From NCBI RefSeq assembly GCF_000026545.1, contig NC_011601.1: 64,000 nt of DNA, one strand, 5' to 3'. The stretch's first letter is position 1. The number at the start of each line of letters is the position of its first letter. Position numbers: made by a program. Shown here one piece after another: positions 27,001 to 29,625 of this stretch. Source of the DNA: Escherichia coli O127:H6 str. E2348/69 (GTDB taxonomy: Bacteria > Pseudomonadota > Gammaproteobacteria > Enterobacterales > Enterobacteriaceae).

Positions 27001-29625
27001 ATTTTAGCTATCGCTCAGTCATTCTCACTCTTTCAGAGCGCAAGGTACTGCGGCTATTAGGTAAAGGATGGGGCATCAACCAGATAGCTTCATTGCTTAA
27101 GAAAAGTAATAAAACTATCAGCGCCCAAAAAAACAGTGCGATGCGTCGACTGGCAATTCACAGTAACGCTGAAATGTATGCATGGATAAATAGCGCGCAG
27201 GGTGCAAGAGAACTTAACTTGCCTTCTGTTTATGGAGATGCCGCAGAATGGAACACAGCCGAATTAAGAAGAGAAATGTCGCACTCATAGAAAAATGCGT
27301 CATGAGTAGTATCGGTATTGAGAGTTTATTCAGAAAGTTTGCGGGTAACCCTTATAAGCTCCATACCTATACCAGTCAGGAGTCATTTCAGAATGCCATG
27401 TCGCGGATCTCTTTTGCGGCGGTCATTTTTTCTTTTTCTGCCATGAGAAGTGAGCGCAGAGAGGGATTATCTTGCCTGACTGAATTGGCGATTAAGTTTC
27501 CGCGTACCCGGCGTTTAGTTATTGCGGATGATGATATTGAAGCTCGGCTGATTGGTTCATTGTCGCCATCACCGCTGGACGGTGTATTAAGTAAAGCGTC
27601 AACGCTGGAGATTTTTCATCAGGAACTCTTTTTGTCATTAAATGGTGTACGTCAGGCGACCGACCGACTGAACAATCAGTGGTACATTAACCAAAGCCGG
27701 ACGCTAAGCCCGACGGAGAGAGAAATATTGCGCTTTATGTCGCGTGGCTACTCAATGACACAAATTGCCGAGCAGCTTAAACGCAATATCAAAACGATCC
27801 GTGCACATAAATTTAATGTGATGTCGAAACTGGGCGTCAGTTCTGATGCAGGGTTGTTGGAGGCCGCAGATATTCTGTTATGTATGCGGCATTGCGAAAC
27901 AAGTAATGTGTTGCATCCTTATTAATCCGCATGATGCCGGGTTTACTTCCCCGGCAGTGCTTTCATTTCAGCGTACAATCGCCACATTGCTGCACATCCG
28001 GTAAGCGATAACGCTGGCAGCAAGTGCGGCGCACCAGCAGGCCGTCGCGCAGTACCACGGTACGCCAGAGTGGATTATCTTCACCGTTCGTGAGCGTTTT
28101 CTCAAAAAAGAGGGCATGGCGCAGCGATTCAACCGTCGCCTCGCCGAGCAGTTGCTTCATCTCAGTGAGATACCAGTTGATCAAATAACCGGTATTGCTC
28201 CAGATAAGTTTGCCGTTAATCTCTCCCGTTGCTTCTAGTGCCTGCACAACCGGAACCAGCGCCTGGCTGATTAACGTTTCCATTCGCTGCTGCGGCGAAT
28301 GTAGTGTTGCGTTTTTATCTTCACACACATCGACCCAGAAACAGGCGGCGCGTCCGGTTTCGTGAAACTCAACGTGGACATGTTCCGGCGACACATCTAA
28401 TGCTTTTTCCTGAGTCAGCAGCGCCAGCATTAATGGTGGTACCATCAGGCCGATATACCATTGCGCCCACAGTGAGATCAGCGGTTTGTTTTCGCGGATC
28501 ATCAAAGGTTGGTTGCGGTAGATATGATCGGAATAGACCGCGAGTAGAGAACTTAGCGCATTAGGTGATGACCATTGCGCCAGCGTCATGGCGTTAAGTG
28601 GGGCGGGTTCATCCAGGCGGATAAACTCCAGCAAATGTTCACGATGTTCGGCGATCGTCGCCCGCACGGCTTGTGCAAGCCCAGCATCCTGCGGCTGGAG
28701 ATGCGTTCGCCAGATAACATCTTCATAGAGCGGTGCGGAACGATAGGCCATAATCGTGATGGTAATCTAAATGATAATTATTGCTAATCCTATCGATAGG
28801 TTTACCCGATAGCAAGGGATTTCTCTGGCTTGCAAATGATAAGAATTATCATATGATATTAGTTATCATTATCAATGAAAGAGATGAAACCATGTTGCAA
28901 CGTACGCTGGGCAGTGGCTGGGGAGTGTTGCTGCCGGGATTGCTGATTGCAGGGCTGATGTATGCGGATTTATCGCCGGATCAATGGCGGATTGTCATTC
29001 TGATGGGATTGGTATTGACGCCGGTGATGCTGTATCACAAACAGTTACGGCATTACGTTTTGCTACCATCGTGCCTGGCGCTTATTGCTGGCATCATGCT
29101 GATGATAATGAATTTGAATCAGGGGTGATAAAACAGTGAAGAGACAAGAAAAGAAGTAAAGATAATTGGTGCGAGGGGGGGGACTTGAACCCCCACGTCC
29201 GTAAGGACACTAACACCTGAAGCTAGCGCGTCTACCAATTCCGCCACCTTCGCACAGTCATCTTACTTTTTTTGATATCGCCTCGTTTGGTGCGAGGGGG
29301 GGGACTTGAACCCCCACGTCCGTAAGAACACTAACACCTGAAGCTAGCGCGTCTACCAATTCCGCCACCTTCGCCCAGTGCGAGCAATATCAACGTGGTT
29401 TTTGGTGCGAGGGGGGGGACTTGAACCCCCACGTCCGTAAGGACACTAACACCTGAAGCTAGCGCGTCTACCAATTCCGCCACCTTCGCATACCATCAAT
29501 TCTTAAAAAGAATTGCTACCACGGAGGCGCATTCTAGTGGTTTTCAGCTTTTCGTCAATAGTTAATTATCGCCGGAGGTGTAATTGCTGGAAAAATGTCC
29601 ATCAGGAAACTAACGTGCAGGTTTT

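Follow-up and report, generated by a model that had tools for sequence, protein, structure and literature searches.

The Fur operators between fhuF and yjjZ of Escherichia coli E2348/69 and their possible origin as an evolutionary composite

In Escherichia coli O127:H6 strain E2348/69, the siderophore-iron reductase gene fhuF and the small gene yjjZ are divergently oriented on either side of a 140-bp spacer (28752-28891, 69% A+T), which is bounded by the fhuF start codon, a reverse-strand CAT at 28749-28751, and the yjjZ ATG at 28892. Positions are those of the window, the 64,000-nt stretch of the E2348/69 genome analyzed here, unless K-12 coordinates are named. We conclude that fhuF and yjjZ are very probably co-repressed by Fur from this spacer. 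The Fur operators between the two genes are real and already known, and they constitute an ordinary textbook regulatory region. What this work adds is their exact coordinates in E2348/69 and the proposed juxtaposition of two operators by loss of a GGDEF-domain gene. As to the division of labor between these operators, we consider it likely that the strong one belongs to yjjZ, both ancestrally and functionally, and the weak one to fhuF.

A preliminary description of this DNA, made from the sequence alone, had proposed a dense array of Fur boxes covering most of the 140 bp. The motif strings that it quoted were found at the positions claimed, aaatgataattattgc at 28769-28784 and gcaaatgataagaattatcatatgatattagttatcattatcaatg at 28832-28877. 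However, they span 62 of the 140 bp, so the coverage had been overstated for the motifs, and the Fur boxes, although present beyond chance, form two separate clusters rather than one continuous shared array. About 45 bp between the two motif clusters show no resemblance to a Fur box. We scored boxes by mismatch counts against the 19-bp consensus GATAATGATAATCATTATC and against 7-1-7 units, using 2000 dinucleotide-preserving shuffles of the spacer as the null model. The sole match to GATAATGATAATCATTATC with at most three mismatches in the entire window lies at 28855-28873 (three mismatches, versus 0.02 matches expected), and a best 19-mer as good as this one arose in 0.05% of the shuffles. A best 7-1-7 box with one mismatch was obtained in 0.35% of the shuffles, and four 7-1-7 boxes with at most three mismatches, as present in the spacer, in none of the 2000. 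When the window is divided into 140-bp tiles, none ranks above the fhuF/yjjZ spacer. Full-length Fur-box matches exceed chance, and the excess is highly significant. The overlapping GATAAT-type hexamers from which the array had been deduced are present as well, but a bare count of nine, where 5.8 are expected, falls short of significance (p = 0.11) owing to the 69% A+T content of the spacer; we therefore dropped this count as evidence.

Iron-dependent co-repression of both genes, as the preliminary description had suggested, is borne out by published footprints, transcription start sites (TSSs), and fur deletion and iron data from the orthologous K-12 region. Alignment of the K-12 spacer with that of the window requires no indels and shows nine substitutions across the 140 bp, so that published coordinates can be transferred one to one. 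Chen et al. (2007; NAR 35:6762, PMC2189734) predicted two Fur clusters at fhuF, with scores of 16.1, 20.8, and 22.3 bits and of 14.6 and 9.3 bits, respectively, and reported, for K-12, a gel shift and two regions protected from DNase I, with high affinity for fhuF1 and low affinity for fhuF2. A figure in the same paper marks the fhuF TSSs and the yjjZ start codon. aaatgataattattgc and gcaaatgataagaattatcatatgatattagttatcattatcaatg lie within the two published footprints, which together span about 100 of the 140 bp.

Evidence of the kinds named as a check on the proposal, chromatin immunoprecipitation (ChIP) or reporter fusions, is already published for each of the two genes. By ChIP-exo, yjjZ is a core Fur-regulon member in nine strains of E. 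coli (PMC10164565) and belongs to the Fur regulon of strain CFT073 (PMC7157518), and a Salmonella yjjZ promoter-gfp fusion was repressed by iron (PMC8432900). The ROSE study (PMC10301672) detected no yjjZ transcription in the wild type, transcription in a fur deletion mutant, and strong initiation in vitro, and it cites two Fur sites at yjjZ from EcoCyc. For its part, fhuF is derepressed in a fur deletion mutant and by dipyridyl or iron chelation (PMC7515728), and fhuF-lacZ serves as the reporter of the Fur titration assay (FURTA; PMC3788343). For repression of both genes by Fur and iron, for both footprints, and for both sets of TSSs, the experimental proof is in the literature on K-12 or Salmonella.

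These data also bear on the trivial explanation that an A+T-rich promoter spacer mimics Fur boxes and does not bind Fur specifically. Its base composition and the unremarkable hexamer count are what such a spacer would display. However, the full-length boxes are highly significant and conserved in 77 species, they coincide with the DNase I footprints, and the ChIP-exo regulons place yjjZ under direct Fur control. We regard the probability of a chance resemblance as negligible, and the notion of the spacer as mere A+T-rich promoter DNA, already refuted by the published footprints, was rejected.

The strong cluster is laid out on the yjjZ promoter. Box A is situated between the yjjZ -35 and -10 hexamers, and boxes B and C, with a 6-bp shift between them, jointly make up the best 19-bp Fur box (28855-28873), which lies over the yjjZ -10 and TSS. 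According to the element map, with the TSS taken from PMC10301672, boxes A to C reach from the yjjZ -35 to +10, and the high-affinity footprint stretches from slightly upstream of the -35 as far as roughly +16, a layout that is standard occlusion geometry. Shimada (2014) listed a yjjZ promoter with identical hexamers and a 16-bp spacer, whereas the ROSE paper (PMC10301672) gives the same hexamers with the spacer written as 18; counted on the sequence, it is 16 bp, in agreement with the former and not with the latter.

At the other end of the spacer, box W and the low-affinity footprint lie over the fhuF TSS, and this footprint also covers the inferred fhuF -10. The promoter scan did not call the fhuF -10/-35 pair, which has 8 of 12 matches. 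A candidate OxyR site overlaps box W, the fhuF -10, and the TSS. This match to the OxyR consensus, four ATAG-type elements spaced 10 bp apart, is tied for best in the window, where three positions reach 14 of 20. Oxidized OxyR represses fhuF (reviews; PMC8115020), and RegulonDB holds four OxyR sites at this gene (PMC4280137). According to a preprint, the yjjZ promoter is activated by OxyR in vivo but did not respond in a cell-free test. Control of fhuF by OxyR was absent from the preliminary account.

From this arrangement, we propose that the spacer probably contains a back-to-back pair of Fur operators, one for each of the two sigma-70 promoters. At plentiful iron, Fe(II)-Fur dimers bound to the three 7-1-7 boxes of the strong operator (28828-28880) would block RNA polymerase and keep yjjZ silent, and the weak operator (28745-28798, with its box at 28772-28786) would confer lower-affinity repression on fhuF by the same occlusion. 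The candidate OxyR site (about 28774-28810) over the fhuF core promoter might subject fhuF to additional, peroxide-dependent repression. Under iron scarcity, Fur would come off both operators, permitting divergent transcription of fhuF and yjjZ. The part played by the strong cluster in fhuF repression would then be small or indirect.

Comparison across the Enterobacteriaceae suggests how the two clusters came to be neighbors. A scan for FhuF in one genome per species yielded 80 Enterobacteriaceae loci, and the 77 in which yjjZ was found served as the comparison set. fhuF and yjjZ are adjacent in nine of the 77 species, found in Escherichia (four species, 140-bp gap) and in Leclercia and Silvania (155 to 166 bp). 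In 67 species, the gap amounts to about 1.42 kb and accommodates a gene for a 354-aa GGDEF-domain protein (PF00990, E = 4e-47), co-directional with fhuF. This GGDEF (diguanylate cyclase) gene is present in Salmonella, Citrobacter, Klebsiella, Enterobacter, and others (e.g., locus L018, 1316-2380, plus strand); judging from the order of locus tags, it may be STM4551 of Salmonella. Intestinirhabdus alba has a 553-bp gap containing a remnant of the GGDEF gene that corresponds to its 38 C-terminal amino acids (L037, 2279-2392). This remnant and the phylogenetic spread of the gene argue for loss rather than gain. A tblastn search of the window with E values up to 10 found no GGDEF-gene remnant.

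Each cluster has kept to its own gene. The strong block TGACAAATGAgAAAatTATCATATGATATTGGTTATCATTATC is located within 80 bp of the yjjZ ATG in every species, the best 19-mer there having two to three mismatches in 77 of 77, and the block comprising boxes B and C, TATCATATGATATTGGTTATCATTATC, is near-invariant in the 77 species. The weak block AATCTAAATGATAATGATTGC, followed by the -10 and -35 cores, lies about 30 bp from the fhuF ATG and is likewise kept in the 77 species; in 68 of them, a 7-1-7 box with at most three mismatches is found no more than 80 bp from the fhuF ATG. Because the clusters remain with their respective genes in the 67 of 77 species where the GGDEF gene parts them by about 1.4 kb, we favor separate operators. 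Cross-genus homology ends on both sides at about 28826-28829, which implies that in Escherichia the promoter-operators of fhuF and yjjZ were fused directly to form the spacer. At the junction, the sequence in Leclercia and Silvania is unlike that of Escherichia, suggesting an independent deletion in these genera. We see roughly even chances that the Escherichia "array" is an evolutionary composite, in which a precise deletion of the GGDEF gene, together with its upstream region, from between the core promoters fused the strong and the weak operator and may have created a regulatory coupling not present in the ancestor. Such coupling could consist of a spread of Fur from the strong site onto the weak one, of read-through into fhuF from a relic GGDEF-directed promoter, or of control of both genes by one OxyR tetramer. 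A limited literature search found no paper describing the deletion history of this spacer. In the genera that carry the GGDEF gene, the cyclase itself might be iron-regulated, because the strong Fur cluster lies in the divergent spacer between yjjZ and the GGDEF gene there.

The assignment of one operator to each gene has to be weighed against a single bidirectional operator, in which the strong cluster would directly repress both genes, acting on fhuF via an upstream promoter with a start near 28841, and the weak box would be an accessory. Several observations point in this direction. A fhuF-directed, promoter-like site on the reverse strand (TTGATA-16-TATGAT, 28848-28875), with 10 of 12 matches, has the best promoter-scan score in the region and lies within the strong cluster. 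Shimada (2014) listed the fhuF promoter as TTGATA-19-GATAAT, which places it on the same -35 hexamer. The conserved palindrome ATCATATGAT has the -10 of this site as one half and that of yjjZ as the other, and Chen et al. 2007 (PMC2189734) ascribed the high-affinity cluster to fhuF. If the reverse-strand site is used, the strong cluster would repress fhuF directly, and the picture of one operator per promoter would be incomplete. However, the only fhuF TSSs reported, 28781/28782, are at least 46 bp from the strong footprint, and the published TSSs define two separate core promoters with one cluster each. In the 67 species with the intervening gene, moreover, the strong cluster is 1.4 kb from fhuF, which retains its proximal box and promoter block, and the reverse-strand -35 varies among genera in its first two bases. 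In the GGDEF-bearing genera, the equivalent promoter-like site would point at the GGDEF gene, and no TSS for the site at 28848-28875 was found in the literature. Taken together, we judge a shared operator to be unlikely.

A second alternative retains the two operators and couples them. Since the loss of the GGDEF gene, Fur at the strong yjjZ operator might load the weak fhuF operator by lateral polymerization or looping, in which case fhuF repression in Escherichia would need both clusters. Fur is reported to polymerize along DNA and to produce extended secondary footprints (PMC2189734), just about 30 bp lie between the footprint edges at 28798 and 28828, and apparently independent deletions, one in Escherichia and one in Leclercia/Silvania, left the operators equally close. 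Yet, the two footprints are discrete and separated by unprotected DNA (PMC2189734), and the weak box shows the same conservation at loci where 1.4 kb lies between it and the strong cluster, which argues that it works without this neighbor. No experiment bearing on Fur coupling between the clusters was found in the literature, and we give this possibility slightly less credence than that of a shared operator.

Returning to the reading of two operators, each with its own promoter, several further points besides the high-scoring reverse-strand site weigh against it. All binding and TSS data stem from K-12 or Salmonella, and the E2348/69 spacer differs from that of K-12 by the nine substitutions. 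E2348/69 carries private substitutions at 28761, 28779 (in box W), and 28843 (in box A), unseen in 10 other Escherichia alleles. Just 4 to 5 nt separate the inferred fhuF -10 from the reported TSS, and this hexamer has a score of 4 of 6; the candidate OxyR match is moderate, its position coming from a consensus scan. Finally, Mn-Fur cut transcription from the fhuF promoter in vitro by just 27%. The fhuF-lacZ fusion is known for its sensitivity to Fur titration; a low affinity of the weak operator at the mapped fhuF promoter would fit both this ease of titration and the limited inhibition by Mn-Fur.

Within Escherichia, the Fur boxes are almost invariant across 11 alleles, and none of the substitutions of E2348/69 removes a box. 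The fhuF -10 reads TAGGAT in E2348/69 and in most genera versus the stronger TATGAT in K-12. Spacers at least 99% identical to that of E2348/69 occur in 5 of 5424 genomes. Strain 200164 (L086, 172-207) has six copies of TTATCA instead of two in the yjjZ leader, within the strong Fur cluster, which gives a spacer of 164 bp; this allele represents a naturally occurring expansion of the hexamer unit of the Fur box.

The region is the same locus, with the same clusters and the same yjjZ hexamers, as fhuF1/fhuF2 of K-12 (Chen et al. 2007) and as the yjjZ promoter with two Fur sites in EcoCyc/RegulonDB; E2348/69 departs from K-12 in the nine spacer substitutions, the fhuF -10, and the private changes described above. 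It resembles the hexamer-array (NATWAT-repeat) operator of the aerobactin gene iucA, where overlapping Fur boxes produce a footprint of more than 50 bp across a sigma-70 promoter. The 6-bp register of boxes B and C fits both the hexamer and the 7-1-7 models, and the allele with six TTATCA copies illustrates the hexamer unit. Unlike fhuF/yjjZ, the iucA operator serves a single promoter, resides on a plasmid or island, and has neither a divergent partner nor OxyR input. In the fepA-fes and fepB-entC pairs of E. coli, overlapping or adjacent promoters are covered by one operator region common to both. In contrast to these, the fhuF and yjjZ promoters would stand back to back, with their own clusters of unequal affinity and a recent juxtaposition by gene loss. 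What fhuF/yjjZ has in common with both pairs is a short, divergent, iron-regulated spacer with Fur boxes over the core promoters that repress both ways (cited in PMC2189734).

The features of the locus are compiled in Table 1. Region 27900-29200 matches E2348/69 at 100% identity, and 5423 of 5426 complete E. coli genomes contain it with the gene order bglJ, fhuF, yjjZ, and tRNA-Leu unchanged. The hydropathy profile of YjjZ (78 aa) reveals three hydrophobic segments, which makes its earlier label as a small membrane protein reasonable. A tandem trio of tRNA-Leu(CAG) genes (leuV, leuP, and leuQ in K-12) occupies 29167-29489 on the minus strand, convergent with yjjZ and starting 39 bp past its stop codon. 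An Rfam scan of 28400-29600 with E values up to 1 matched only these three tRNA-Leu genes and no known RNA element in the spacer or yjjZ. On the other side of fhuF, the reading frames of yjjQ (26565-27290) and bglJ (27248-27925) overlap by 43 bp, as they do in K-12. A Fur-like 19-mer with five mismatches at 25985-26003, upstream of yjjQ/bglJ in A+T-rich DNA, is probably a chance occurrence. Weak resemblances to the Fur consensus were also noted at 10129-10151 and 38735-38753, each with five mismatches to the 19-mer; within the former, 10134-10151 has three mismatches to the 7-1-7 unit.

Table 1. Features of the fhuF/yjjZ locus in window coordinates
Feature	Position	Strand	Evidence and remarks
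fhuF coding sequence	27963..28751	-	Open reading frame with FhuF and FhuF_C domains (Pfam); annotated in RefSeq for both E2348/69 and K-12; siderophore-iron reductase, 262 aa
Low-affinity Fur-protected region (fhuF2)	28745..28798	.	K-12 4603680-4603733 transferred; DNase I footprint, PMC2189734
Weak Fur box W, TGATAATTATTGCTA	28772..28786	.	7-1-7, three mismatches; inside aaatgataattattgc
Candidate OxyR site, ATAGnTnnnAnCTAT-N7-ATAGnTnnnAnCTAT	28774..28810	.	14 of 20 specified positions
fhuF TSSs	28781..28782	-	K-12 4603717/4603716 transferred (Figure 5 legend, PMC2189734); mapped in K-12
Inferred fhuF -10, TAGGAT (K-12: TATGAT)	28787..28792	-	Position relative to published TSS; AATCCTA kept across genera
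Inferred fhuF -35, TTGCTA, 17-bp spacer	28810..28815	-	Sequence and element map; GCAAG core kept in 77 species
Junction of fhuF-linked and yjjZ-linked conserved blocks (approximate); putative GGDEF-gene deletion scar	28826..28829	.	Cross-genus homology ends on both sides
High-affinity Fur-protected region (fhuF1)	28828..28880	.	K-12 4603763-4603815 transferred; DNase I footprint and gel shift, PMC2189734
yjjZ sigma-70 promoter, TTGCAA, 16-bp spacer, TATGAT	28830..28857	+	Promoter scan, 9 of 12 matches
Fur box A, TGATAAGAATTATCA	28837..28851	.	7-1-7, one mismatch; between yjjZ -35 and -10
Second fhuF-directed promoter-like site (unverified), TTGATA-16-TATGAT	28848..28875	-	Promoter scan, 10 of 12 matches; inside strong cluster
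Fur boxes B (28854-28868, two mismatches) and C (28860-28874, three mismatches)	28854..28874	.	6-bp offset
yjjZ TSS	28865	+	K-12 NC_000913.3 4605777 transferred; ROSE in vitro transcription and fur deletion data, PMC10301672
yjjZ coding sequence	28892..29128	+	Pfam PF07256 (DUF1435), E = 9e-37; RefSeq annotation; hydropathy profile; 78 aa

As a discovery, the operators themselves carry little weight, given that fhuF is the historical FURTA reporter, that the sites were footprinted in 2007, and that yjjZ is a recognized core member of the Fur regulon. The coordinates and the comparison across genera do, however, suggest a small correction to the usual description of this region: what is called the "high-affinity fhuF site" would by ancestry be the operator of yjjZ, and the mapped fhuF promoter carries the weak site. 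Location of the weak site on the fhuF promoter could explain why fhuF-lacZ is so easily titrated. Beyond this, fhuF/yjjZ may present a natural case of two operators united by gene loss.

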